A DNA stretch of 64,000 nucleotides, taken from positions 5,900 to 69,899 of the forward strand of contig JAGVLJ010000044.1 in assembly GCA_020049855.1 (NCBI GenBank), given 5' to 3'. This DNA comes from Bacteroidia bacterium (GTDB lineage: Bacteria; Bacteroidota; Bacteroidia; UKL13-3). Shown here one piece after another: positions 777 to 58,634 of this stretch (position 1 is the first letter of the stretch; the number at the start of each line of letters is the position of its first letter). The translations under genes and the position numbers were made by a program. The notes under the pieces are model-generated. The model searched no databases. It saw nothing but the letters and a program-made list of their open reading frames with translations, and had not been told where the DNA came from.

Positions 777-1343
777 TCAATATTTGAAATGATCCGAATC
801 GGGTTTTTGCAGCCACTGTTCCAGTGTTTGTGCCACCTTGTCTTTGTCAGAAAGAACCGGATGGGTAACGGGCCAAGTAATACCAATAGCTGAGTCGTTC
901 CACAAAATGCCCGACTCACAATTTTTATTATAGAGTCCGGTGGTTTTGTATTGTATTTCGGCAAAATCGCTCAGCACACAAAATCCCCGGGCAAATCCTG
1001 CCGGTGCCCACACTTGCTTACAGTTTTCGGCCGATACCACTTCGCCATACCATTGGCCCAAAGTGGGCGATCCTTTGCGAATATCCACAGCTACCAGAAA
1101 CGCTTCGCCTACCGTAACGCGCATCAGTTTGCCCATGGGTGGTTCCCATTGAAAATGTAATCCGCGTACAACACCTTTTGCGGAGCGCGAGTGGTTGTCC
1201 TGCACAAATTGCGTGGGTAGTCCTAAACGTTCAAATTCGTCCATTCGGTAGGCTTCCATAAAAAAACCGCGCTGGTCTCGAAAAATTTCCGGTTGAATAA
1301 TTTTAAGGCCGTTCAACTTTTCGGCAATTAGTTCTATTTTCAT
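777..1343 (-). CDS. rfbC: dTDP-4-dehydrorhamnose 3,5-epimerase
   Basis: 188 aa; RmlC cupin hallmarks (QxRGxF, VRGLHFQ) and typical length. Confidence 0.85.
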   Translation of the reverse strand: MKIELIAEKLNGLKIIQPEIFRDQRGFFMEAYRMDEFERLGLPTQFVQDNHSRSAKGVVRGLHFQWEPPMGKLMRVTVGEAFLVAVDIRKGSPTLGQWYGEVVSAENCKQVWAPAGFARGFCVLSDFAEIQYKTTGLYNKNCESGILWNDSAIGITWPVTHPVLSDKDKVAQTLEQWLQKPDSDHFKY

Positions 1344-2386
1344 TTCTTCAAATGGGTTATTAACTCGGTGTAAGTGGTTTTTTTATGGAGAAAATAAGCC
1401 AGGGCAATGCTTTTTGGATACATCTCTTTCATTACCACTTCATCGTTTACCTTACGTCTTTGCTGCGCTTCTTTTCGATGCCGTAAAACGAGGCCCAAGT
1501 TAAGTAAAATCCACACATGTGCGGCTATCACCGCCCTAACGCGGGTAAATTGCAGTTTTACAAGCGATACACCGGCTGCCAGCCAGTCGAGCAAGATATG
1601 GATACTTGTTTTGGAGAGTACCTGCGATGCCCCATAATTTTTGATGACCATAAACAGGGAGTTACGATGATTCCAGTACATTTTTTTAAAACTCTGCGAC
1701 TGAATGGTGGCACCTCCATAGTGTGCCACCACGCTGGTCGGCACCACTTTGAGCTGATAGCCTGCCATGAGGATTCGCCAGCACAAATCAATTTCGTCCA
1801 TATGGTGCACAAAGCTGTTGTCGAGCGGGCCGGAATGCGGGAGCACATCGGCTCTCAAAAACATGGCCGCCCCACTTGTCCAGAACACATCGGTGATATC
1901 ATTGTACTGGCCGTTATCGGGCTCAATAGTATCAAACACGCGCCCCCGTAAAAAAGGGTATCCGTACACATCCATTTTACCGCCCGATGCTCCGGCATAT
2001 TCAAACTCCTTTTCATTAAAAAACGAAACCAGTTTGGGTTGCAGGGCACCGATAGAGGGGTCTTTTTCGGCCAGTTCCACAAGCGGTTCAAGCCAGCCCG
2101 AATGTACCCGCACATCGTTGTTGAGGCACAGGTAGTATGTACCGGTGCATACCGAAAAGGCTAGGTTGTAGGCAGCACAATACCCGTTGTTGAGGGGATT
2201 TTTGATGATTCCCACCTGTGGGTATTTTTCGCTTACATACTCTACATCGTTATCGGTAGAGGCGTTATCGAGCAGGTATACTTTAAAGTTGGGGTAGGTA
2301 GACCTGAAAACCGACTGAAAACAATCGTCCAGAAATTTTTTGCCGTTGTAATTTAATACAATGATATCAACCTGCGGATACTTCAT
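1340..2386 (-). CDS. family 2 glycosyltransferase (rhamnosyltransferase-like)
   Basis: 348 aa; GT-A N-terminal region (IIVLNYNG..., DNASTD) with a hydrophobic C-terminal segment. Overlaps rfbC by 4 nt, suggesting an operon. Confidence 0.75.
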   Translation of the reverse strand: MKYPQVDIIVLNYNGKKFLDDCFQSVFRSTYPNFKVYLLDNASTDNDVEYVSEKYPQVGIIKNPLNNGYCAAYNLAFSVCTGTYYLCLNNDVRVHSGWLEPLVELAEKDPSIGALQPKLVSFFNEKEFEYAGASGGKMDVYGYPFLRGRVFDTIEPDNGQYNDITDVFWTSGAAMFLRADVLPHSGPLDNSFVHHMDEIDLCWRILMAGYQLKVVPTSVVAHYGGATIQSQSFKKMYWNHRNSLFMVIKNYGASQVLSKTSIHILLDWLAAGVSLVKLQFTRVRAVIAAHVWILLNLGLVLRHRKEAQQRRKVNDEVVMKEMYPKSIALAYFLHKKTTYTELITHLKK

Positions 2387-3771
2387 TAACCAAGCTTATC
2401 AAAACGCGCCTGAAAAAAACGCAGGTATTTTGGTTCGTACGCCATTTTTAATCCTTTTATTTTATGCCTTTTTTTAAATACATTATATGTCGATTCGGCA
2501 ATTACGTCCATATGGGCTTGAGTATACACCCTGCGAGGGATAGTGAAACGCACAAGCTCCAGTTTGGGGTAATAATTTTCGCCATTTGCTTTTCTTCCGG
2601 CCGAAACAATACCTCGCTCCATGGTACGCACCCCTGAGTCAATATAAATTTCGGCTGCAAGGGTTTGTGCCGGATATTGATCCTGCGTAAGGTGCGGGAG
2701 AAATGCCTTGGCGTCTACAAATATACCATGTCCACCTATAGGTTTCACAATCGGGATGCCGTAATCTAACATTTTATTTCCAAGGTATTCAACCTGTCCC
2801 ACCCTAGCCTGTTGGTGAAAATCATCTAAACTCTCCACAATACCAATGGACATGGCTTCCATATCTCGGCCGGCAAGCCCGCCATATGTATGTAATCCTT
2901 CATAAACCACCACCAGGTTACGGGCATCTTCATATACATCCCATTCGTTGGTGGCTAAAAATCCTCCTATATTTACAAGAGCATCTTTTTTGGCACTCAT
3001 GGTTGCTCCATCGGTTTGCGAACAGATTTCTTTTACAATTTGAGCAATACTTTTATCCTTGTATCCTTTTTCGCGCTGTTGAATAAAGTAAGCATTTTCT
3101 GCTACGCGGGTCATGTCATGAATTATACGTATGCCATTCTTTTTGGCGTACGCTCTCAGTTCTTTCAAATTTTTCATGCTTATGGGTTGACCACCGGCCA
3201 TATTTACATTTGTGGCTATACTTACGTATGGAATTCGTTTGGCTCCATATTTTTTTACTACTTTATCAAGTTTGTCAAGGTCAACATTTCCTTTAAAGGG
3301 ATGGGAATTCAGCGGGTCGTGAGCCTCGTCAATAATAATATCCGTAAAAGTTCCACCTGCTAATTCCTGATGGAGGCGGGTGGTGGTAAAGTACATATTG
3401 CCTGGAATTACATTGCCTTTTTTAATTAATACTTTCGAGAGTATATTTTCGGCTCCACGCCCCTGGTGGGTGGGAATGATGTATTTGTAGCCATAGTATT
3501 TTCTGATGGTTTCTTCCAGATGAAAGAAGTTGCTGCTTCCGGCATAGGCTTCATCGCCCACCATCATCCCGGCCCATTGGCGGTCGCTCATGGCACTGGT
3601 TCCGCTATCTGTAAGCAGGTCAATATATACATCGGCAGATTTGAGCAAAAAGGTGTTGTATCCAGCATCTTTAATTGCTTTTAGGCGTTGAGTCCGGGTG
3701 GTCATTTTTAATAACTCCACCATTTTCATCTTATAGGGCTCGGCCCATGATTTTTTTATTTGTGTTTTCAT
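2386..3771 (-). CDS. beta-eliminating lyase (tryptophanase / tyrosine phenol-lyase family, PLP-dependent)
   Basis: 461 aa; SAKKDALVNIGGFL PLP-lysine motif and overall TnaA/TPL-like sequence. The VNIGGFL variant looks closer to TPL than TnaA, so substrate is not assigned. Confidence 0.8.
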   Translation of the reverse strand: MKTQIKKSWAEPYKMKMVELLKMTTRTQRLKAIKDAGYNTFLLKSADVYIDLLTDSGTSAMSDRQWAGMMVGDEAYAGSSNFFHLEETIRKYYGYKYIIPTHQGRGAENILSKVLIKKGNVIPGNMYFTTTRLHQELAGGTFTDIIIDEAHDPLNSHPFKGNVDLDKLDKVVKKYGAKRIPYVSIATNVNMAGGQPISMKNLKELRAYAKKNGIRIIHDMTRVAENAYFIQQREKGYKDKSIAQIVKEICSQTDGATMSAKKDALVNIGGFLATNEWDVYEDARNLVVVYEGLHTYGGLAGRDMEAMSIGIVESLDDFHQQARVGQVEYLGNKMLDYGIPIVKPIGGHGIFVDAKAFLPHLTQDQYPAQTLAAEIYIDSGVRTMERGIVSAGRKANGENYYPKLELVRFTIPRRVYTQAHMDVIAESTYNVFKKRHKIKGLKMAYEPKYLRFFQARFDKLG

Positions 3772-48157: not shown

Positions 48158-48889
48158 ATGCAGTATTCTTTTTTTTTATTTTGTTTGTCAGTCTTTTTAT
48201 TCTCGTGCAATAGAGAAAGAGCTCTTGTTACCGAAAATAAAATACCCTACCTGTATGATAGCGTGAATGTGTGCGATGTGTATCCATTTCCGGGCGACAC
48301 CTGTTTTGTGTTGATTCACGGAGGAGCATGGGAGGGAGGCGACAAAAGTAATTTTTACCGTTCGGCTGACGTATTTGCCACCTATCACCGGGCAGCCTGC
48401 AATATGAACTATACCGTAAAGAAAAAATACTGTGGCGACCTCAATCAGACGGAAGTTAAAAGTTGTCTTGATTTTTTAAGCGGTCAGTTCCGGTATAAAA
48501 AATTTGTGTTGGTTGGTATATCGGCCGGAAGTACCATTGCAATGGATTATGCCTACCACACCGGAGATTTGCGAGTGATAGGAGTTGTTTGTTTGGGAAC
48601 TATTGGAGATTTGACTAAAAATGCCAATTCAAAAGTTTTATTCAATGCAGGCTATGCGTATAAAGATGTGGTAGCCTCCAGCCCCATCAATGCCACTACA
48701 TTTTGCAAAACATTATTTGTACACGGCAATACCGATGATATTTCTTTTCCGGTTCAGTCGGTAGATATGAATACTAAACTCACCGCTTCCGGCTATGAGT
48801 CAATGATTATTTTTAAGAATAGAGGGCATTGGTTTGACGAAGAAAGTTTGAAGGAAGTGTTTACGTTCTCGGTGTTTTATTTTCAATAA
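48158..48889 (+). CDS. alpha/beta hydrolase (esterase/lipase-like) lipoprotein
   Basis: 243 aa; lipoprotein signal (LFSCN), oxyanion HGGAW and nucleophile elbow GISAGS. Confidence 0.65.
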   Translation: MQYSFFLFCLSVFLFSCNRERALVTENKIPYLYDSVNVCDVYPFPGDTCFVLIHGGAWEGGDKSNFYRSADVFATYHRAACNMNYTVKKKYCGDLNQTEVKSCLDFLSGQFRYKKFVLVGISAGSTIAMDYAYHTGDLRVIGVVCLGTIGDLTKNANSKVLFNAGYAYKDVVASSPINATTFCKTLFVHGNTDDISFPVQSVDMNTKLTASGYESMIIFKNRGHWFDEESLKEVFTFSVFYFQ

Positions 48890-49684: not shown

Positions 49685-50929
49685 TTAACTGGCAAAACCC
49701 CTCATACCATTGGCCGGGGCAATTGAAGCTTGGATGGCTACAAAACTTTCGGCCGACTGAATTTCCTCATCACCCTGCCCTTTTGAGGCCTGATGAATGT
49801 CTTTAAGGAAAGGAGGCATAAATCCATTCAGTTCTTCATTGCCGCCTGCCGCTTTAATGCTTACCGAATAACGCAACGAGCTTCCATTGCCTATGGTACG
49901 TACCATATTCATCTTAAGCAGGTCGTTAAAATCACGTTGAATGGTTTTACGGTTACATCCGAATTCTTCAGTAAGTTCCTTGGTACTCACAAATCCTTTA
50001 TGATGGATTATATACATGATGAGTTCCTGTCGCTTATTCAATAGCCCATGACTATACAGTTTGAGCTTATAGCCATGCTCAAATACATAGTTCATTATAT
50101 TACGTTGCCGCGGATTGGCATCATCGTATTCTACCTGCTTGCGAAAGTATTGGCGTAATACTTGTTTTACCCGTAGCAGGTTATTATAAAAAACTTCATT
50201 GCCAAAGTCTATTTTGTTTTTGAGGTTTTCCTTGGTAAATTCTTCCTGCTCCCGCAATTCAAAATAGCGTGAACGGTTTAAAAACAACTCATGCTCCAGC
50301 GTAAGTAATCCATCCATATTGAGGTTGTGTTTGGCAAGCCAAAAATTTTGCATCAAACGCGCTAGTATGGGAGCATCGCTGCCAAATGGTTTTATTCTAA
50401 GAATTTCAAAATGAAGAATCCAGGAAGCGGCAATGGGATCAAGCTCATTCTCATTTTGCACCATATCAAAAACCTCGGCAAGTTGAGCTTCTTCCATTTG
50501 AGTAAGTGATTCCGGAAGTTTGTGGTATTGTATGGTAAATAAATCAAAATCTTCAGTAGAGCGATTTACCGTACTGCTTATGAGTTTTTGCAACTCAACA
50601 AGTAATTCTACCTTAAGGGGGGCTTCACGTTTGTGAAATAGGTATTCTTCCGCTTCCCGGTAAATGTACAATGTTTTTTCATTAAACCCTTTGGCTTGCG
50701 CTTTTTTGCTTAGGATGTTTTTAAGTGTTTCTAAATCGGTAATGGAGCGTTCAAGCGCGTTGGCGTAATAAGAGCGGGAAGCTGATGCATTAAATTGCTC
50801 AATGCGTACTACCTTATCGGGCAATTCCAGAAAGCGAAAGATATTGCCCAACTCGAAATAAAATTCGTGCAGTTTGGTTTCTGAATTAAGTAAAGCTACG
50901 GGAATGCCCAGCTTTTCTTCTAAAAGCAT
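49685..50929 (-). CDS. Fic/DOC-like protein with degenerate active-site motif and C-terminal HTH
   Basis: 414 aa; LRIKPFGSDAPILARL aligns with the Fic motif HPFxDGNGRxxR, but His and DGNGR are replaced. The C-terminus is a DeoR/wHTH-like segment (STKELTEEFGCNRKTIQRDFNDL). Confidence 0.4.
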   Translation of the reverse strand: MLLEEKLGIPVALLNSETKLHEFYFELGNIFRFLELPDKVVRIEQFNASASRSYYANALERSITDLETLKNILSKKAQAKGFNEKTLYIYREAEEYLFHKREAPLKVELLVELQKLISSTVNRSTEDFDLFTIQYHKLPESLTQMEEAQLAEVFDMVQNENELDPIAASWILHFEILRIKPFGSDAPILARLMQNFWLAKHNLNMDGLLTLEHELFLNRSRYFELREQEEFTKENLKNKIDFGNEVFYNNLLRVKQVLRQYFRKQVEYDDANPRQRNIMNYVFEHGYKLKLYSHGLLNKRQELIMYIIHHKGFVSTKELTEEFGCNRKTIQRDFNDLLKMNMVRTIGNGSSLRYSVSIKAAGGNEELNGFMPPFLKDIHQASKGQGDEEIQSAESFVAIQASIAPANGMRGFAS

Positions 50930-51125
50930 AGTTCAAATCTACTTTGTTTTACATCCCTATGAAAATGGGCATCAGTGTGCCCCCTTTGGTTTATTCACAA
51001 TATGAGGCATAAAGCCGATAGGAACAATTCCTGAATAACAGTTTTGGCTTAGGAGAGAGCCAGTCAAAAAAAATGGACAAAGGCGCGATTATGTGGAATT
51101 TTGAAAAAGAGAGTGAATGATTGTT

Positions 51126-52124
51126 TTAACCCAAATCTGCCAACCAAGCCTCAAGCAAAGGTATTTCCTGTTCGCCCACCAATTTTAAATCAATAAGTGT
51201 CCGGTAGCAATGCAGCAGGTTTTCGCCTAGGTAGTGAATACCCGACTTCAGGGTTAGTTTTCCCAGTGTTTCGGCAATTTTGGCATTGTTAAGGTAACCC
51301 GGAATCTCGTCTTCAAAATCACGTAGCAGGTTATGCTGGTTGCGCTCCTGCCACACCGTAGCTTCTTCAAATAAAATATGCCAGTTGTTCTCCCAAGCTA
51401 TGCGCTGAGCCACAAAACTGCGCCAGATATCCGTCATTCTGAAACTGCAATAAGCCGGCAGGTAAAGCAGCGGAAAGGCTTCCTTAAAATGGGTAGTATT
51501 TTGACTGTTGTACGGACACCAGGTATTTTTACCCAGACCTATTTTGTGTTTTTCTGTAAATGAAAACGGAAGGCTTTGTGTTAACCTGAATACGGCATCA
51601 ATGTCCGGATTTTCGTCAGCAAGCCCCTGTTGTATGGGAGCTTTAATTTCGCGTTGTTCAAATAAACTCAGTGGCTTTAGTTCTTTGTGCAAATACTCAA
51701 GTGGGTATCCACGTGGCCATATATATCCATTGGTAAAATACGAATACACATTGAGCCAGCCTTGTTGCTGAATATCAAAAGCAGGTTGAGTGAGGGAGCG
51801 GTTGTCCCAAAAATTTTCTCTCGGAAAATTGTCATCATCACTCTCAATAATCATTTGAGCCCCATTTTTTACAGCTAACAGGTATCCTATATTTTTTCGG
51901 GCATAATGCCGTTCGGGGCAAATTTTTGCAAAGGCAAACGGAAGCGTTTTTTGCTCTTCCAGCGAATAAAACCGACAGCCGTTTAATGAAAAATCTTTTG
52001 GAGATTTAGAGTCACCAATAAGAATAAATTCAGTTTTATTTTTGGCGCATCCTTCGGCAAAAGAACGCAGCACTTCATTGGGCGCGGATATGGAAGTTAT
52101 GACTAAAGCAGTATGGGTATTCAT
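51126..52124 (-). CDS. DUF288/STELLO-like putative glycosyltransferase-like protein
   Basis: 332 aa; ...LIGDSKSP..., RKNIGYLLAVKNGAQMIIESDDDNFP resemble DUF288 (GT75-related). 8-bp gap to the DPM1-like GT2. Confidence 0.35.
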   Translation of the reverse strand: MNTHTALVITSISAPNEVLRSFAEGCAKNKTEFILIGDSKSPKDFSLNGCRFYSLEEQKTLPFAFAKICPERHYARKNIGYLLAVKNGAQMIIESDDDNFPRENFWDNRSLTQPAFDIQQQGWLNVYSYFTNGYIWPRGYPLEYLHKELKPLSLFEQREIKAPIQQGLADENPDIDAVFRLTQSLPFSFTEKHKIGLGKNTWCPYNSQNTTHFKEAFPLLYLPAYCSFRMTDIWRSFVAQRIAWENNWHILFEEATVWQERNQHNLLRDFEDEIPGYLNNAKIAETLGKLTLKSGIHYLGENLLHCYRTLIDLKLVGEQEIPLLEAWLADLG

Positions 52125-52132
52125 GAAAAGAG

Positions 52133-52867
52133 TTAGAGTGATTTGGAGTTAAAGGTAAAACGCAATAATACATAATGAAGCAATACCTCAATGGAATTGC
52201 GTATGGCCCGTTGCGACACACTTGGGGAAGGTGCTTTATAGTGAATGGGAATTTCGGCAAAGCGTTTTTTACGCAGCAGGTAACGTACTTCGGTTTGGTA
52301 GAAATGCGCTTTTGACAGCAGCTGGTAGTCGAGTAGTTCCTTAACCACCGAAGCATGAAATCCCTGAAATCCAGAGGTCATATCATACATCCGTGTTCCC
52401 AGTAATACATTGGATAGGATAGTTCCGGTTTTTGATAACATTCTTCGAAAAAAAGGTGAGTCTGACATAGAGCCTCCATTTATAAAACGGCTGCCAAAAG
52501 CGCACTCATTTCCTTCATTCAGTACCCGTAAAAACATGGGCAATGCCCGCGGGTCGTGCGATAGTCCGGCATCCATTTCAATAATAAAGTCGTGGCCATT
52601 GGCATACGCTTCTTTGTACCCGCGCACATAGGCATCAACAACATTTTTGTTCTCAGGTGCCCAAATGGTACAGAAGCGGTTGTCGGAGGTGCTTTGCTGT
52701 TGGCACAACTCAAGAGTTTGGTCAATAGATGCATTATCTACGACTAAATAAATTTTACCGCTTCCCAGACTATTTAATACCTTAGTAACCTCGCCAATAA
52801 AATCAGCGAAATCTTTTTCTTCATTTGCCATGGGTATAATAGCGGCCCAGTTCGAGTCGAAATACAT
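52133..52867 (-). CDS. GT2 polyprenyl-phosphate glycosyltransferase (dolichyl-phosphate mannose synthase / ArnC-like)
   Basis: 244 aa; IIPMANEE, VVDNASID, EMDAGLSHDP (DxD-like): the DPM1/Ppm1 catalytic domain pattern. Confidence 0.75.
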   Translation of the reverse strand: MYFDSNWAAIIPMANEEKDFADFIGEVTKVLNSLGSGKIYLVVDNASIDQTLELCQQQSTSDNRFCTIWAPENKNVVDAYVRGYKEAYANGHDFIIEMDAGLSHDPRALPMFLRVLNEGNECAFGSRFINGGSMSDSPFFRRMLSKTGTILSNVLLGTRMYDMTSGFQGFHASVVKELLDYQLLSKAHFYQTEVRYLLRKKRFAEIPIHYKAPSPSVSQRAIRNSIEVLLHYVLLRFTFNSKSL

Positions 52868-52916
52868 CTTAGTGGTTTAAGGTAATAGGTTCAAAGATAA
52901 AATAAGCATTCGTATT

Positions 52917-55898
52917 TCAATGAACTCCCGCGCTTCTAAGTTTCTCGATCATTTGCGTGCAGGCGTGTGCCATCTCCTGATTGCCCATTCTGGTATAGGC
53001 ATCCCGCATTATCTCGTAAGCCTGAGGCATTTCCTGTCGTAAGTTAACGGCATTTGTTTCAGACTCTACACATTTGGCATAATTTCCGGTTAAAAAATAG
53101 GCCTGCCCCAGAGCCATATAAATTTCAGGAAGTTTTCCATTTTGCTTAATGCAATTTTCATATTCTGGAATAGCTTCTGCGTATTTCTGCATATTCATAT
53201 ACGAAGTAGCAGCGTGGTAGTAGGCCATAGCATAGTTAATTTTTAAACCATATGATTTATGAAACAATTTAATGGCGGCAGCATAATTTTTTTTGTTAAA
53301 TTCTATTAATCCTAATAGGTCATAAACTTCATAATTTTCCGGAATAAGTTCAAGTGCTTTTTTCAGATGTGCGCGGGCATTTGTTTCATCCAGCATATTT
53401 ACATAAACACCTCCCAGCACCCTGTGCGCTTCTTCGTTGTTGGGGTTCCATGCTATGGCTTTTTTAAGGTTTACAATGGCTGAGTCAAAACTGCGTGCAT
53501 AAAGTTGCGGATACGCATCGGCTATGTAATGATCGTGGCTCTTTAAGATGGCTGCCAGCGGCACACCGTCTGCTTCAATTACATGTATGGCTTCTTTAGG
53601 TGGAAATTGCCCTGATGCCAATTGATGTGGAGTAAGAGTGCGGGTAGTATAAATAGCATAATCCCATTTGCCTTTATACCATTCCATATCACGAGTCCAC
53701 TGCCATTGAATGCTGTCGGTTACTTTTTGTGAATAATATGAGGCATTGAGTGGTTCGTTATTAATGGCTACCACTATGGCTTTATTGTAGTTCAACGGTT
53801 CATTTTTCAGTAACCATTCGGTAGCTTGTTTCACCACATTACCATAATAGTCGGTTTCATATTTTCCGTAGGCTCCTCTTAGTCCGCCCACAAATTGATT
53901 GAAATACACATATTCATTGGGGTGATTGCGTATCATCCATCCCAAGGGTTCGGCTAAACCGACAAGCGGCACTACTACCAGCAATAGTTGAACGGGTTTT
54001 ATTTTTACTGCCGAGGCAATGATGTCCCATCCGCAGGCTGCAATAGCTACCAGCGGTGGATAGATAAATAAAAAGTGGCGCCAGCCATTGTACAACATGG
54101 AATTTTTGTACGAGGCATAAAACACCGGAAACACAATAACAAATACCAGTAAACCTACTATCGGCCATCTGAATTTTTTGCGTGCAAACACAATCAGGAG
54201 TAATCCGAGTGCCGCACCGACAAGAGCCACTACAGGTACTGTAATGCCTATGTATTTTACGGTATAATACCATGGAACCTGAGCCATATTGATATGTACT
54301 CCTTCAAAATTTTCATAGGAGGTAATGAGCGAGAAATTGGTAAATTCTTTTAGTGCTTTAATTGGGTTGGTAAAAGGTTTGGTGATACCAAATGGCCAGA
54401 AAAGTATTCCAAGAAAGTAGCTGAATCCGGCAACAGTAAAAAAGTATTTCAGGTATTTTGGAATTAATGATAAAGCGGTTTTGTTATTTTGCCGGAGATG
54501 ACCAAGCCATTCAAAACCCATAAACAGAGCTGTAAAAGCAAGAAGTATAATGCCGCCTATGCGCATGCTGTTGGTAAGAGCAATGCCTAGAATTAAAAAT
54601 AATAGGGTTGAGGTGCGGGGGTTAGGCAATTGTTTTAAAAAACGAATCAGGTGATAAAGGCTGAAAATGTATCCGGCTGCAAACGGTATATCTTTGGGGT
54701 TATTCATGGATTGTCCGAAGAACTGCGGAGTAATCAGAATAAGTAGCAATGCAAAAAATGCTGTGCGCCAGTTGCCCAGTTCACGTGCGGTGAGTGCGGC
54801 ATAGGTCATGGCCATTAAACCAAAAAGAGAATTAAGTAAATGCCTTGTCTCAAATTCTCCAAAAGGAGATAATACGTCATTTACAAAGGCTGCCAGTAAA
54901 TCAAAAAAACTTCCGTAATAAAGCAGGTGACTGTACAATGCTTTGTTGGTATCAAATACCGCTTTGTCTTCGCCAAACGAGAAGAAAAATTTAAGCATAT
55001 CCTTGCCATATTCATTTTGTGCTTTTTCGTCCCAGGTTACTCCAAAATCAAAACTCAGGTATGGCATGGCAATCAATGCCACGGCAAAAATCAGAAAAAA
55101 ACCAAGCCGATATACCGGGTGTTTGGCATCGCCAAGTGAGAAAGGAGTGGTTTTAAATTCGCTTACAGGTTTAGTTACATGCCAGTACCAGCGCAACGAG
55201 AAAACAAGGGACAGCGAACTCCACACTTCACCCATCCATTGGTAGGCGCGGTACGGATTGGTTTTTAAGGCCACTACGGCAGGCTCAATGGTAACTTCAT
55301 TTAACTTAATTTTTCCAAGCAATTCGGTAAACAGGTTTAATCCGTTACCCGATAAATCGCCAAACAGGTTTTTGGCCTTTTCTGTTTTTAGTACAAGTGC
55401 TTTTGCCGATAAATCTTTTATTCCTGATCCAATACTTGTTTCATTTATAAAATTACTTTTCCATTTAAGCAATTTCTGTAAAAAGCTAAGGTTATGGTTG
55501 TCATTGGCCGGAACAAACCACACGGCATTGCTTTCTATTTTTGTGTGATTGCTGTTAAACCAGTTAAGCGCATTCGTTACAGCGCAGGCCTGATGCGGGT
55601 GATAAATATACACCCATTCTCCATCAATGCTTTCCTTACATTGCCCCAGTGCTTTACCCCCATGTGCGGAAGTACTTACTACCTTGATTTTCCCTTTGGC
55701 AAGTGCCTCGGCCACCGATTTTGTTTTGGAAGATTGGGCCCATACCTCTTTTTTTATTTCTGGTAAACACACTAGCAATTCCACTGAGGTTTTTGATTTG
55801 AGCACCAGTCCTGCAAGTAAATCAATTGATGAATGGAATTCTTTATCACCACTTATGGGGGGTAAAACAAAACTTAACAAGCAACTATATGATGTCAT
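52917..55898 (-). CDS. GT-C fold membrane glycosyltransferase (PMT/ArnT-like, PMT_2/DUF2723-type) with N-terminal soluble domain and C-terminal TPR repeats
   Basis: Multi-TM core with a loop-1 WDE...YG motif, followed by about 330 aa of TPR-like repeats. The ORF track extends to 56075, which would overlap the divergent CotH gene, so the start is placed at Met-50 (55898); it is uncertain. Confidence 0.5.
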   Translation of the reverse strand: MTSYSCLLSFVLPPISGDKEFHSSIDLLAGLVLKSKTSVELLVCLPEIKKEVWAQSSKTKSVAEALAKGKIKVVSTSAHGGKALGQCKESIDGEWVYIYHPHQACAVTNALNWFNSNHTKIESNAVWFVPANDNHNLSFLQKLLKWKSNFINETSIGSGIKDLSAKALVLKTEKAKNLFGDLSGNGLNLFTELLGKIKLNEVTIEPAVVALKTNPYRAYQWMGEVWSSLSLVFSLRWYWHVTKPVSEFKTTPFSLGDAKHPVYRLGFFLIFAVALIAMPYLSFDFGVTWDEKAQNEYGKDMLKFFFSFGEDKAVFDTNKALYSHLLYYGSFFDLLAAFVNDVLSPFGEFETRHLLNSLFGLMAMTYAALTARELGNWRTAFFALLLILITPQFFGQSMNNPKDIPFAAGYIFSLYHLIRFLKQLPNPRTSTLLFLILGIALTNSMRIGGIILLAFTALFMGFEWLGHLRQNNKTALSLIPKYLKYFFTVAGFSYFLGILFWPFGITKPFTNPIKALKEFTNFSLITSYENFEGVHINMAQVPWYYTVKYIGITVPVVALVGAALGLLLIVFARKKFRWPIVGLLVFVIVFPVFYASYKNSMLYNGWRHFLFIYPPLVAIAACGWDIIASAVKIKPVQLLLVVVPLVGLAEPLGWMIRNHPNEYVYFNQFVGGLRGAYGKYETDYYGNVVKQATEWLLKNEPLNYNKAIVVAINNEPLNASYYSQKVTDSIQWQWTRDMEWYKGKWDYAIYTTRTLTPHQLASGQFPPKEAIHVIEADGVPLAAILKSHDHYIADAYPQLYARSFDSAIVNLKKAIAWNPNNEEAHRVLGGVYVNMLDETNARAHLKKALELIPENYEVYDLLGLIEFNKKNYAAAIKLFHKSYGLKINYAMAYYHAATSYMNMQKYAEAIPEYENCIKQNGKLPEIYMALGQAYFLTGNYAKCVESETNAVNLRQEMPQAYEIMRDAYTRMGNQEMAHACTQMIEKLRSAGVH

Positions 55899-56012
55899 AT
55901 ATATTTTTAATAATTCAAAAGCACCCAAAAATAGCCAATAAATTGAACTGAAATAGCTCTCTGCATTTTTTTTTCTAATAGGTTTGGTATAACTTGCCTG
56001 CACGAACCCAAA

Positions 56013-58634
56013 ATGAAAAAAGTTTTTATTGTTCAGGTGCTGCTTCTCAGCTTTGTTGCTACGGTGCCGGCACAAAATTTAACCCTCCCTATTTTTAAAA
56101 TTGAAATTGATACCGGGTATTTAAAGGCCATGTACGCCAACCCAGGTGCTGATTTTTATTACCCTGCCGTTTTCAGATTTGACACCATTACCTACCCCTG
56201 CGAAGTGAAATTTAAAGGGGCTTCATCCCTTAATTATCCCAAAAAAAGCTGGGCCATAAAATTTGGAGATAATGTAAACATTTTTGGCGCAAAGCGAATT
56301 AACCTGAATGGCGATTATAAAGACCATTCATATATGCGCAATTTGCTGGTCTTACGTCTGTTTAAAAATGTGCTTTCGGTCGATGGCCCTAATATAACAC
56401 ATGTTAGTTTTAAAGTGAATGGATTGTATGCAGGCGTACATACCCTTATCGAACAGATGGATCAGGATTTTTTGGTAAATCATGGATTGCCGGCTGTTGA
56501 TTTTTACAAAGCCGAAAATCATGGGGCAGGAATGTTTGCCCTAACCAAAGATTCGTATTGGCCATTAGTATGGACCGAGCGAGTAGGGAATGACACCCAC
56601 AATGATCTGAAAATTTTAACCAACAAAATTTTTTACCTGGGCGAAGAGGAGTTCGATTCAAGTATTCATACCATGGTAAATGTAGATAATGTATTAGCCT
56701 TTTTTGCCGTACATTTTGCCAATACTGCCTTTGATAATTTTAACAAAAATCAATATGTAAATTTTAACGGGATTACTGGCAAATATGAGTGGATACCCTG
56801 GGATAATGAGGGAAGTTTTGGATTTGGTGCTTTTGGTAACTTTGATACCAGCAATATTGATTATTTGCTGGAGGACTCATACACGGGCGAGTATAATGTG
56901 CTTTTTCAGCGCTTAATTGCTAACGATTCAATACGGGGGCTTTTTAATGACAAGGTGCGTAGAATAATTAATGAGGGATATAGTTATTTGGATACGCTAG
57001 TGTACAACACAGCCAACAGGATTCGAAATGACGTGTATCAGGATTCTACCAAAGAAACATCGAATGCCGAATTTGAAAGCGACCTGACCAGGTTGCGGCT
57101 TTTTATGACAGAGCGAAAAGCTTTTCTTACGGCCAACCAAGTGCCAAAACATTACCGGCTCACTGATTTTTATAATTCAAATCCTTTTCCCAATCCAACT
57201 TATCCGCTGGCTGATATACGGGTAAAATCTGAAGCTAAACAGAGAGTATTTATGTATCTGGCCGATTCGTTAACCTTTGACATTTTTGGCCGACCGTTCA
57301 ATTTAAAACGAATTGAATTGTATGATGACGGTGTGCATAACGACCTTTTGGCAAATGATCTGGTGTATGGAAATACGATAAATGCTCAGGCATTTTACAG
57401 TAAATATATTCCGTATTCCTTTACCGGGGGATATCAAAATTATCCATCAAACGGGCTTTTTTATATTGATTATTACCGATCCAAATCTTTTGCATTTAAC
57501 AAAGCGAATGCTGACAATAATTTGGGTGCACGATTACGCATTGGGCGAACCTTTAAGCAAAGTAGTTCTTATTTTGTAGAAATAGTAAATACTTCATCAA
57601 CTCAATCCGCAGATATTTCCTATTGCCATTTCAGGGTTAATGCAGCCTATAAGGACCTGATGTTTTTGCATAACACCCTGTTGCAGCCGGGTGATACCCT
57701 CATCATTACCAACGATACTATGATGGCACGCAAAGCATTTCAGGGCAAGAGAATATGCAATGTTTCGTTGTATTTCAATTTCAAGGAAAAAGATTTGTTT
57801 GAAATTCTCTCCCCTGCACTTACTCCGATTACTTCCAAAACACTGCTTTTCTTTGATGAGATACCTTTTCCGGCTACCTATTCGGTAGTGATCAATGAAA
57901 TTAATTATAATTCACCAGGTAACCACAACACAGGCGACTGGATTGAATTATATAACCCCAACAACCAGTCGGTTGATTTGAGCAGTTGGATTTTTCGTGA
58001 CGCTTCAGATGCACATAATTATATCTTCCCAAATGGAACAATTATACAACCAGATTCATTCTTGGTAGTGTGTGAGGATACGTTGGGCTATACTTTATTT
58101 AACAATACCAATATCCAGTACTTAGGGAATCTTGGGTATGGGTTTTCAGGTGCCGGAGAGTTGATTCGCTTATTTAATGCTAATGGGCAGCTAATAGATT
58201 CCGTTATGTATGATGATGTATTGCCTTGGCCAACCGCAGCCGATGCTAAAGGTCCTTCGCTTGAACTTAAAAATTTTAACTGGGACAATGCGCTTGCTTC
58301 TTCCTGGTATGCTTTTGAAGGAGATTATGGCACACCCGGCAGACGAAATCATATTGTGACTGTGGGAATAGCCGGAACAAAGTTGGCCGACAACGATTTT
58401 TTTCAATTGTATCCAAACCCAAATAACGGAACATTCACGGTGGCCTTACCTGCAGAAGTGGATGCCATTAACCTTAGGGTGATAAATATGCTGGGCGAAG
58501 AAATTTATACAATGCACGAAAAAAATGCTACAACTTTATATGCCCAACTACCCTCTGTGAATCCGGGAGTTTATATTGTTTCTATACAGGCTGGCAGTCG
58601 TAGCGTGAGCAAAAAGATGGTTATAAGCTACTGA
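56013..58634 (+). CDS. CotH kinase-family protein with lamin-tail domain and T9SS type-A C-terminal sorting domain
   Basis: 873 aa; signal peptide; N-terminal CotH-like region (KKSWAIKF...RNLLVLRLF). LTD motif (GDWIELYNPNNQSVDLSSWIFRD). Por-type CTD at the C-terminus. Confidence 0.75.
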   Translation: MKKVFIVQVLLLSFVATVPAQNLTLPIFKIEIDTGYLKAMYANPGADFYYPAVFRFDTITYPCEVKFKGASSLNYPKKSWAIKFGDNVNIFGAKRINLNGDYKDHSYMRNLLVLRLFKNVLSVDGPNITHVSFKVNGLYAGVHTLIEQMDQDFLVNHGLPAVDFYKAENHGAGMFALTKDSYWPLVWTERVGNDTHNDLKILTNKIFYLGEEEFDSSIHTMVNVDNVLAFFAVHFANTAFDNFNKNQYVNFNGITGKYEWIPWDNEGSFGFGAFGNFDTSNIDYLLEDSYTGEYNVLFQRLIANDSIRGLFNDKVRRIINEGYSYLDTLVYNTANRIRNDVYQDSTKETSNAEFESDLTRLRLFMTERKAFLTANQVPKHYRLTDFYNSNPFPNPTYPLADIRVKSEAKQRVFMYLADSLTFDIFGRPFNLKRIELYDDGVHNDLLANDLVYGNTINAQAFYSKYIPYSFTGGYQNYPSNGLFYIDYYRSKSFAFNKANADNNLGARLRIGRTFKQSSSYFVEIVNTSSTQSADISYCHFRVNAAYKDLMFLHNTLLQPGDTLIITNDTMMARKAFQGKRICNVSLYFNFKEKDLFEILSPALTPITSKTLLFFDEIPFPATYSVVINEINYNSPGNHNTGDWIELYNPNNQSVDLSSWIFRDASDAHNYIFPNGTIIQPDSFLVVCEDTLGYTLFNNTNIQYLGNLGYGFSGAGELIRLFNANGQLIDSVMYDDVLPWPTAADAKGPSLELKNFNWDNALASSWYAFEGDYGTPGRRNHIVTVGIAGTKLADNDFFQLYPNPNNGTFTVALPAEVDAINLRVINMLGEEIYTMHEKNATTLYAQLPSVNPGVYIVSIQAGSRSVSKKMVISY

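Follow-up and report, generated by a model that had tools for sequence, protein, structure and literature searches.

Three-component glycosylation systems of the GtrA/GtrB/GtrV type make a lipid-phosphate-linked monosaccharide on the membrane's cytoplasmic side, which is then used outside by a GT-C enzyme. The same logic is followed by the pentofuranose systems, which consist of PPPRS, a MATE flippase and a GT-C enzyme of family GT136 and in which the sugar is a furanose whose identity is set by auxiliary enzymes. These systems start from phosphoribosyl pyrophosphate (PRPP) with a UbiA-like synthase, and epimerisation takes place on the lipid (Kelly et al., PNAS 2024, PMC11127046). In mycobacteria, decaprenyl-phosphate-arabinofuranose (DPA), a lipid-linked furanose used by the GT-C enzymes Emb and Aft, is also made from PRPP and is epimerised on the lipid by DprE1/E2. 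To our knowledge, every known route to a lipid-linked furanose begins from PRPP. Mammals lack furanose sugars, which in the envelopes of microbes are often antigenic or essential. A lipid-phosphate sugar synthase of family GT2 is also combined with a GT-C enzyme in Ppm1 or dolichol-phosphate mannose synthase (DPMS) with protein mannosyltransferases (PMT), and in ArnC/ArnT. Here we describe an operon of three genes, A, B and C in the order of transcription, on the minus strand of a stretch of 64,000 nucleotides from a Bacteroidia bacterium of an uncultured lineage (contig JAGVLJ010000044.1, positions 5,900 to 69,899), which we call the window.

Gene A (52917..55898, 993 amino acids (aa) from its ATG) is composed of a pseudo-GT2 domain, a GT-C membrane domain of the PMT_2 type, a predicted periplasmic alpha/beta domain and tetratricopeptide repeats (TPRs). 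Gene B (52133..52867) encodes a soluble DPMS-like GT2 protein of 244 aa, predicted to be a polyprenyl-phosphate glycosyltransferase. Gene C (51126..52124) encodes an MtdL-like, GT75-related protein of 332 aa, predicted to be a pyranose/furanose mutase of nucleoside diphosphate (NDP) sugars. The Pfam matches of the operon genes are far beyond chance. The open reading frame (ORF) coordinates confirm three co-directional genes with gaps of 49 bp between A and B and of 8 bp between B and C, as given in a preliminary description made from the sequence letters and their ORFs. That description had proposed a protein glycosylation operon of the Ppm1/Pmt type, and its general logic of a lipid-linked donor used by a GT-C transferase outside the cytoplasm holds. 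Our best reading of the operon is a variant of the three-component glycosylation systems. Based on sequence comparisons, we give a probability of about one half to the specific proposal that gene C makes an NDP-furanose, gene B a polyprenyl-phosphate-linked furanose, and gene A transfers this sugar in the periplasm. The B-C pair is abundant in bacteria, and we found no published description of it in literature searches on bacterial DUF288, GT75, GT75 together with polyprenyl, and fucofuranose; the nearest concept was that of the pentofuranose systems (PMC11127046).

Gene C and the GT75 mutases

Gene C had been assigned to the DUF288/STELLO-like glycosyltransferases in the preliminary description. 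The family assignment stands (PF03385, 41.3 bits with a cut-off of 27.8), with residues 229-331 aligned to profile positions 1-102 of 387, but fold and residues favour a GT75-type mutase over a glycosyltransferase. We know of no biochemical activity for the STELLO/DUF288 family, and membership in it therefore says nothing about the function of gene C. Among solved structures, the only real sequence matches of gene C are the MtdL entries (phmmer, E 3e-20), and the profile of the gene C family matches MtdL over residues 4-295 with E 1e-35. A structural model of gene C (pLDDT 93.6) retrieved MtdL in Foldseek with E 1e-21 and a TM-score of 0.83 and rice UAM2 with E 3e-12; ordinary GT-A transferases were all above 1e-5. 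MtdL is a Mn-dependent GT75 mutase that interconverts the pyranose and furanose forms of GDP-L-galactose and GDP-L-fucose via a covalent arginine intermediate (PMC9937993; PDB 7yua).

The functional residues of MtdL are retained in gene C at 14 of 17 positions. T13, I15, D40, D109-N112 and R159 of MtdL correspond to T10, I12, D38, D96-N99 and R138 of gene C, and D195, S228/Q229, R257, D260, R289 and H292 to D174, S207/Q208, R229, D232, R261 and H264; the equivalents in gene C are all invariant among 26 homologues. By alignment, D96-D97-D98-N99 (51828..51839) takes the place of the Mn, ribose and sugar site D109-D110-D111-N112, and R138 (51711..51713), located in the motif WPRGYP, that of the covalently glycosylated catalytic Arg. 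The PRG motif is present in 102 of 120 gene C homologues. Besides the fold, gene C has the DDDN motif, the catalytic Arg and the residues holding sugar and phosphate in common with MtdL/Hyg20 and the plant UAM/RGP proteins, and it has a Thr (T10) at the guanine-selective T13 position of MtdL. Thr at this position represents the GDP-type state, while plant UDP users have Pro (PMC9937993). MtdL and Hyg20 supply soluble antibiotic glycosyltransferases, whereas gene C would supply a lipid carrier. Sequence and model together favour reading gene C as a mutase of the GT75 type, acting on the pyranose and furanose forms of an NDP-sugar, over reading it as a glycosyltransferase. With a mutase of this type the sugar is unlikely to be mannose, and both mannose and a STELLO glycosyltransferase are probably wrong.

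The first 102 positions of the STELLO model cover the part of gene C that matches R257, D260, H287, R289 and H292 of MtdL. A eukaryote-like two-domain DUF288 protein (P0397) keeps DDDN, WPRGFP, R..D and VQDRNAHN. Judged by sequence, plant STELLO proteins may share the arginine-based chemistry of GT75, and our reading of B and C might give a hint to the biochemistry of these plant proteins.

Gene B and the B-C cassette

Gene B matches Pfam PF00535 (Glycos_transf_2) with 54 bits. Its best solved relative is PfDPMS, the Dol-P-Man synthase of Pyrococcus (5mlz, E 4.7e-21), followed by ArnC (E ~1e-8), and its top NCBIfam matches, PgfS, Dol-P hexose transferase and ArnC, are all under their equivalog cut-offs. 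We mapped the residues of gene B on the published PfDPMS structure, in which R117, R131 and S135 form the site for the phosphate of dolichol phosphate (Dol-P), D91 in the motif 89-DADLQH-94 binds the metal, D39 binds guanine and K178 contacts mannose (PMC5526996). The Dol-P site is kept in gene B as R126, R140 and S144, and E16 aligns to E12 of PfDPMS. The motif 89-DADLQH-94 has changed to D99-A-G101-L-S-H, by which the metal-binding Asp91 is lost (D99-A100-G101, 52565..52573). This is a family trait, since DAG[LM]SH occurs in 105 of 120 members of the gene B family and in every cassette partner read. Asn45, a position variable in the family (N, K or R), is found at Asp39, and a Tyr at Lys178. 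The preliminary description had placed gene B with DPM1/Ppm1, which holds for the relationship and for the Arg/Arg/Ser site of the lipid phosphate, but not for the second Asp of the DXD motif. Due to the loss of this Asp and of the Asp39 equivalent, the donor chemistry may be atypical. From these alignments we predict that gene B is a glycosyltransferase for lipid phosphate that resembles DPMS and whose donor site is atypical; it should not be named a mannose synthase. Members of its family are labelled dolichol-phosphate mannosyltransferase by JGI.

Gene C is encoded in at least 585 places in contigs representing one genome per species, and an exhaustive search of representatives gave 3,577 clusters at 50% identity for its family. 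Between members from Bacteroidota, Acidobacteriota, Planctomycetota, Verrucomicrobiota and Proteobacteria the identity amounts to ~55-60%, as is expected of a nucleotide-sugar enzyme. We fetched 80 species-level loci (designated here by L numbers, individual proteins by P numbers), of which 78 have enough room upstream of C. Of these 78, 68 have gene B immediately upstream of C and on the same strand; they cover five phyla or more, and the two genes frequently overlap by 4 bp. Five more have a single gene for a 677-aa protein with two domains of the short-chain dehydrogenase/reductase (SDR) type between B and C, L011 has only a fragment of B, probably because of a frameshift or an assembly problem, and B is missing in the remaining 4. 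When all neighbours were clustered, B and C were the only families common across the loci. Culturable carriers of the cassette include Fibrella forsythiae HMF5405 (L083) and Marivirga. A natural fusion of both proteins, P0366 (593 aa), came from the exhaustive search; its residues 25-246 match B at 42% identity (E 2e-61), and its residues 261-587 match C at 46%. It has D-G-G at the position of the DXD motif of gene B. The translational coupling and the natural fusion suggest, at the level of sequence, that B and C work as a complex. Long ORFs of gene C in L036, L060 and L030 were rejected as further fusions, being wrong-frame extensions from a crude ORF caller. C-like domains also occur in other fusions, in P0373 (667 aa) with a C-terminal GT2 domain of a different type and in P0367, P0382 and P0394 (~610 aa) with an unannotated N-terminal domain of ~260 aa that carries a FLDDDL motif.

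In 33 of 77 loci, one of the two to three genes nearest to C, on one side or the other, encodes a protein of 400 aa or more with six or more transmembrane (TM) helices. Those that can be named belong to GT-C families, namely GT87, PMT_2, PMT, TMEM260-like, YfhO and a TPR-bearing 10-TM type. The neighbour family c65 has its best NCBIfam match in AftB, a terminal beta-(1->2)-arabinofuranosyltransferase (NF041481, E 1e-19). The proposed operon and the mycobacterial DPA system have a lipid-linked furanose for a GT-C enzyme in common; homologues of the DPA enzymes that epimerise on the lipid were not found here. In nine loci of Pyrinomonadaceae, a homologue of GDP-L-fucose synthase (PDB 8du0, E 2e-71; NF047922, 308 bits) follows directly after C, and in two more it is encoded nearby. 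The two GT75 mutases characterised from bacteria, MtdL and Hyg20, both accept GDP-L-fucose as a substrate (PMC9937993).

Eight of the Pyrinomonadaceae loci (L021, L028, L030, L031, L033, L035, L043 and L052) have in common a compact, conserved cluster in which a GT87-like GT-C gene is followed by B, C, GDP-L-fucose synthase and the genes for two 3-TM proteins, one of 143 aa and one of 92 aa. Among the versions of the system, this one looks the most complete. In Acidobacteriota, genes for Wzm/Wzt, Wzy_C, GT4 and methyltransferase proteins also occur in the vicinity of the cassette. The five loci with the double-SDR gene (L025, L063, L071, L073 and L078) are all from Bacteroidota, and the two domains are of the extended-SDR epimerase/reductase-like type. 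In four of them a PMT_2-type GT-C gene follows C on the opposite strand, and in L025 a TMEM260-like GT-C gene lies four genes downstream. The sugar made in these loci may differ; the double SDR (family c28) has only a generic likeness to epimerases and reductases (HpnA-like, MoeE5-like), which is not specific to a sugar.

Gene A and the proposed pathway

In Pfam, residues 353-458 of gene A match PMT_2 (30.7 bits with a cut-off of 26.1) and residues 800-980 match many TPR families. TPR structures in the PDB are matched as well. Homologues of gene A number 574; in a set of 13 of their membrane domains, PMT_2 matches 12 and PMT 8. The AlphaFold model of gene A has a pLDDT of 89.1 and a pTM of 0.86. 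From its helices and the positive-inside rule we derive 11 TM segments with the N-terminus inside, an acidic first periplasmic loop of 65 residues (EL1, aa 283-347), a fourth one (EL4) of 45 residues and a cytoplasmic loop with the motif ARKKFR. The GT-C membrane domain comprises aa 251-660 (53919..55148). It is followed by an alpha/beta domain recognised by the secondary structure of the model (aa 661-790, 53529..53918) and by a TPR superhelix of about six repeats (aa 791-993, 52920..53528), both of which are predicted from the model to be periplasmic.

The motif W289-D290-E291 (55026..55034) is predicted to lie in the first periplasmic loop, where the preliminary description had expected it. 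Among 49 aligned homologues, D290 does not vary and E291 is kept in at least 90%, so that the GT-C enzyme with a loop-1 WDE motif and TPRs stands as described, with its acidic residues conserved. H353, N400, K402, D403, R607 and H659 are invariant as well, and within the stretch N400-P-K402-D403 (54690..54701) and its continuation, at the periplasmic end of TM3/TM4, N400, K402, D403, I404, P405, F406 and A407 are all invariant. From its position, the W-D-E motif would be equivalent to the loop-1 DE motif of PMT, and the region around K402/D403 may have a role in binding the lipid phosphate.

The soluble N-terminal domain of gene A (aa 1-250, 55149..55898) was recognised before but needs to be corrected in kind. 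It is cytoplasmic and has no Pfam match, although the GT2 fold of the DPMS/ArnC type is retained. Where an active GT2 has the motifs VDDGS, DAD and DTQCGFK, it shows VCLPE, HPH and DLSAKAL. Judged by these motifs, the domain is a catalytically dead GT2, and the donor of gene A must then come in trans. More distant homologues of gene A have intact GT2 motifs. We propose that gene A descends from self-sufficient enzymes with fused GT2, GT-C and TPR domains. It appears to exemplify how such an enzyme turns dependent on a donor module encoded separately, and the loss of its own GT2 would provide the rationale for the merger with B-C. Gene A differs from PMT in its dead GT2 domain and in having TPRs in place of the MIR domains of PMT. 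It resembles the eukaryotic O-mannosyltransferases TMTC1-4 and TMEM260 in the order of a GT-C domain and lumenal or periplasmic TPRs, which are thought to select protein substrates. Only this architecture is common to them, as neither the TMEM260-like PF11028 nor a TMTC domain matches gene A in Pfam at E<=0.01; gene A further differs in its N-terminal pseudo-GT2, and its donor is probably not Dol-P-Man.

The co-conservation of the three genes holds for the closer relatives. The A-B-C trio is present in all seven informative loci with a gene A orthologue of at least 57% identity (L001, L009, L011, L092, L093, L094 and L095), and the gaps, where readable, are ~40-52 bp between A and B and 6-11 bp between B and C; L011 is disrupted. 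It does not extend to the distant homologues of gene A (~30-42% identity), which are found without B-C. As far as the neighbourhoods tell, the deeply conserved unit is B-C, and the trio is a clade-specific merger of two widespread modules. Three of the distant homologues adjoin a gene for a ~245-aa Methyltransf_23 protein (L089 9128-9865, L091 8855-9577 and L090 4037-4795); two of these homologues have an intact GT2 domain and one a degenerate one, and there is no such gene beside gene A of the window. The GT2-GT-C-TPR family may have Methyltransf_23 as a conserved partner, perhaps to methylate the sugar.

From gene structure, domain homologies, residue conservation, neighbourhood statistics and the fusion protein, we infer a pathway with its catalytic activities, sugar, lipid, flipping step, acceptor and functional link of A to B-C. 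Gene C would act in the cytoplasm as an arginine-dependent mutase like MtdL and convert an NDP-pyranose to the thermodynamically disfavoured NDP-furanose. The likeliest substrate would be a GDP-L-sugar, with GDP-L-fucose and GDP-L-galactose as candidates. At the inner face of the membrane, gene B would transfer the furanosyl unit at once to undecaprenyl phosphate, and this immediate transfer would pull the mutase equilibrium forward. A putative flippase would bring the lipid-linked furanose to the periplasmic side, where the GT-C domain of gene A would use it with an active site made of D290/E291 of loop 1 and K402/D403. The acceptor, by analogy with TMTC and TMEM260 probably a protein, would be chosen by the alpha/beta and TPR domains in the periplasm. 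In this clade, gene A would rely on a donor made in trans, with B-C immediately downstream.

The proposed pathway shares with the pentofuranose systems the furanose as the sugar. In contrast to them, the furanose would be formed at the level of the nucleotide sugar by a GT75-like mutase and loaded by a GT2 enzyme of the GtrB/DPMS type, the operon has no linked flippase, and its GT-C enzyme is PMT_2-like with TPRs instead of a GT136 enzyme with a carbohydrate-binding module. If the reading is true, the B-C cassette would represent a second, nucleotide-sugar-based route to lipid-linked furanoses, possibly hexofuranoses such as L-fucofuranose or L-galactofuranose. A function would then be available for the large class of proteins annotated as "STELLO/DUF288" and "dolichol-phosphate mannosyltransferase", and so far unknown furanose-bearing glycans would be predicted in abundant bacteria of soil and water.

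Several observations weigh against this pathway. Pfam places gene C in STELLO, and its identity to MtdL is ~24%. The Mn ligand H287 of MtdL is replaced by Q259 (51348..51350), and two further residues essential in MtdL, D87 and S86, correspond to Y74, a family-wide Tyr, and to H73. The inactive AtRGP5 is marked by having lost both the Mn-binding His and Arg257, and the position of D87 is a Ser in active plant RGPs (PMC9937993), so that among the changes to Q259 and Y74 only the loss of the His has weight. The motif V[WY]Q[EDQ]RN.H, with Gln at the H287 position, occurs in 111 of 120 gene C homologues and also in P0397, and the Gln thus marks the whole DUF288 clade. Because of it, we file gene C as GT75-like and not as a member of GT75. 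Gene B lacks the metal-binding Asp of the DXD motif and the guanine-binding Asp39, and neither the B nor the C family has a biochemically characterised member. Because distant homologues of gene A lack B-C, whether their GT2 is intact or degenerate, the link of A to B-C rests on one clade. The loci with GDP-L-fucose synthase belong to one lineage and count as one or two independent observations. In the window, tblastn found no genes of the GDP-fucose pathway, and nucleotide-sugar genes for fucose or galactose were absent there. The search for a flippase near the cassette yielded none that is conserved: the operon has neither GtrA/SMR nor MATE, MatE was found only beside an unrelated homologue of gene A, and the small membrane proteins near the cassette resemble DUF2752 or DoxX and not GtrA as judged by eye, without a Pfam run.

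The alternatives differ in what they make of gene C and of the link between A and B-C. If the operon were to carry out protein O-mannosylation after the model of Ppm1 and Pmt, gene B would make polyprenyl-phosphate-mannose or another pyranose, gene A would transfer it to proteins and gene C would be an additional STELLO-like glycosyltransferase. That the nearest solved relative of gene B is a Dol-P-Man synthase, in accordance with the JGI family name, fits this reading, as do the PMT_2 and PMT matches of gene A and the STELLO match and GT-A fold of gene C. We regard it as unlikely, because the catalytic constellation and the fold of gene C fit GT75 mutases and not transferases. Moreover, gene B with its D-A-G in place of D-A-D has no equivalents of D91 and of the guanine-binding D39 of PfDPMS and carries Tyr at the mannose-contacting K178, and the near-obligate pairing of B with a mutase-like protein (68 of 78 loci) and the fusion of both would be unexpected if B needed GDP-mannose only. 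Gene C could also be a true glycosyl-transferring enzyme, either as a primer glycosylated by itself at R138 or by extending the lipid-linked sugar of gene B, with a disaccharide donor or a glycoprotein primer as the product. GT75 proteins do autoglycosylate an Arg (PMC9937993), the metal site of gene C with its Q259 is unlike that of active mutases, and the fusions of C-like domains with other GT-A/GT2 domains (P0367, P0373) could mean serial transferases. This possibility appears rather improbable to us, since every residue of MtdL that holds the NDP and the sugar is kept, an elaboration for binding of an acceptor is not evident, and the high cross-phylum identity of gene C in spite of varied neighbouring GT-C enzymes points to a role at the level of metabolites.

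Independence of A from B-C, with the donor of A made elsewhere and B-C feeding a GT-C enzyme encoded elsewhere, has a similarly small chance. The gene A homologues of ~30-42% identity that stand beside a Methyltransf_23 gene and without B-C agree with it, and so does the fact that ~75 of the 80 species-level loci carry B-C but no A-type gene. However, in all seven orthologue loci, at identities of gene A down to 57%, the genes follow one another in the same order with short gaps of similar length, gene A with its dead GT2 needs a donor in trans, and B-C is elsewhere typically flanked by some GT-C enzyme. A variation of the proposed pathway, which we consider very unlikely, is a glycosyl relay between B and C. 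Gene C would open the ring of an NDP-pyranose, hold the sugar on Arg138 and reclose it as a furanose, and gene B would move it from the Arg to polyprenyl phosphate, so that no free NDP-furanose is formed. Such a relay would account for the missing DXD Asp and base-binding Asp of B, for the missing Mn-binding His of C and for the coupling and fusion of both. If true, the whole DUF288/STELLO clade, including plant STELLO, would consist of arginine-dependent sugar-ring mutases or relays.

Surroundings of the operon

The ORF of gene A stays open upstream to a TTG at 56075. This TTG was rejected as the start, because a gene A begun there would run into the divergent gene, whose start is at 56013, and because the orthologues start at the ATG at 55898, which is backed by proteins of 993-995 aa. 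In the sequence upstream of gene A, 27 nt from the ATG, we read TATTTTTG (55926..55933, minus strand), a promoter-like element that fits TAnnTTTG, which we take to be the -7 promoter consensus of Bacteroidota, and which is a candidate promoter. A scan of the region for sigma-70 promoters gave fewer sites than shuffled sequence and is uninformative for Bacteroidota. On the 3' side of gene C, a pattern scan of the 196-bp spacer found the hairpin GGGCACACTGATGCCC followed by ATTTTC (50967..50982, minus strand), which is weakly terminator-like; as terminator-like sites in the region are no commoner than in shuffles, the hairpin is weak evidence.

The divergent gene (56013-58634) encodes a protein with CotH, LTD and Por_Secre_tail domains in Pfam, the last being a C-terminal sorting domain of the type IX secretion system (T9SS), in agreement with the secreted CotH protein of the preliminary description. 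T9SS cargo genes (Por_Secre_tail or CHU_C) were found within a few kb of genes of the gene A family in most loci inspected; apart from the one in the window, they are located at 1142-3193 and 5281-7896 in L001, 4416-10081 in L003, 1-794 and 9838-12489 in L089, 10416-12200 in L091 and 17411-18985 in L002. Such cargo could serve as acceptors, or the vicinity could be due to chance, such genes being very common in Bacteroidota.

Downstream of gene C, a gene on the minus strand (49685-50929) encodes a protein of 414 aa with a DeoR-type helix-turn-helix and a faint Fic-like match. This arrangement recurs in L001, L009, L010 and L011 and may represent a linked regulator or simply conserved synteny. 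About 2 kb past the end of gene C lies a gene of the BD-FAE family (48158-48889, plus strand), and in Rapidithrix thailandica a BD-FAE/alpha-beta hydrolase gene (L002 7106-7951) is directly upstream of a gene A homologue. P0242, a protein of a 73-kb JGI metagenome contig, matches gene B over 232 aa with 100% identity. Near relatives of the operon at 92% identity are found in the metagenome-assembled genome "Bacteroidia bacterium SSF48" (JAIBAK010000023; gene C in L009) and in the JGI contig Ga0268298_10003859 (gene A in L092).

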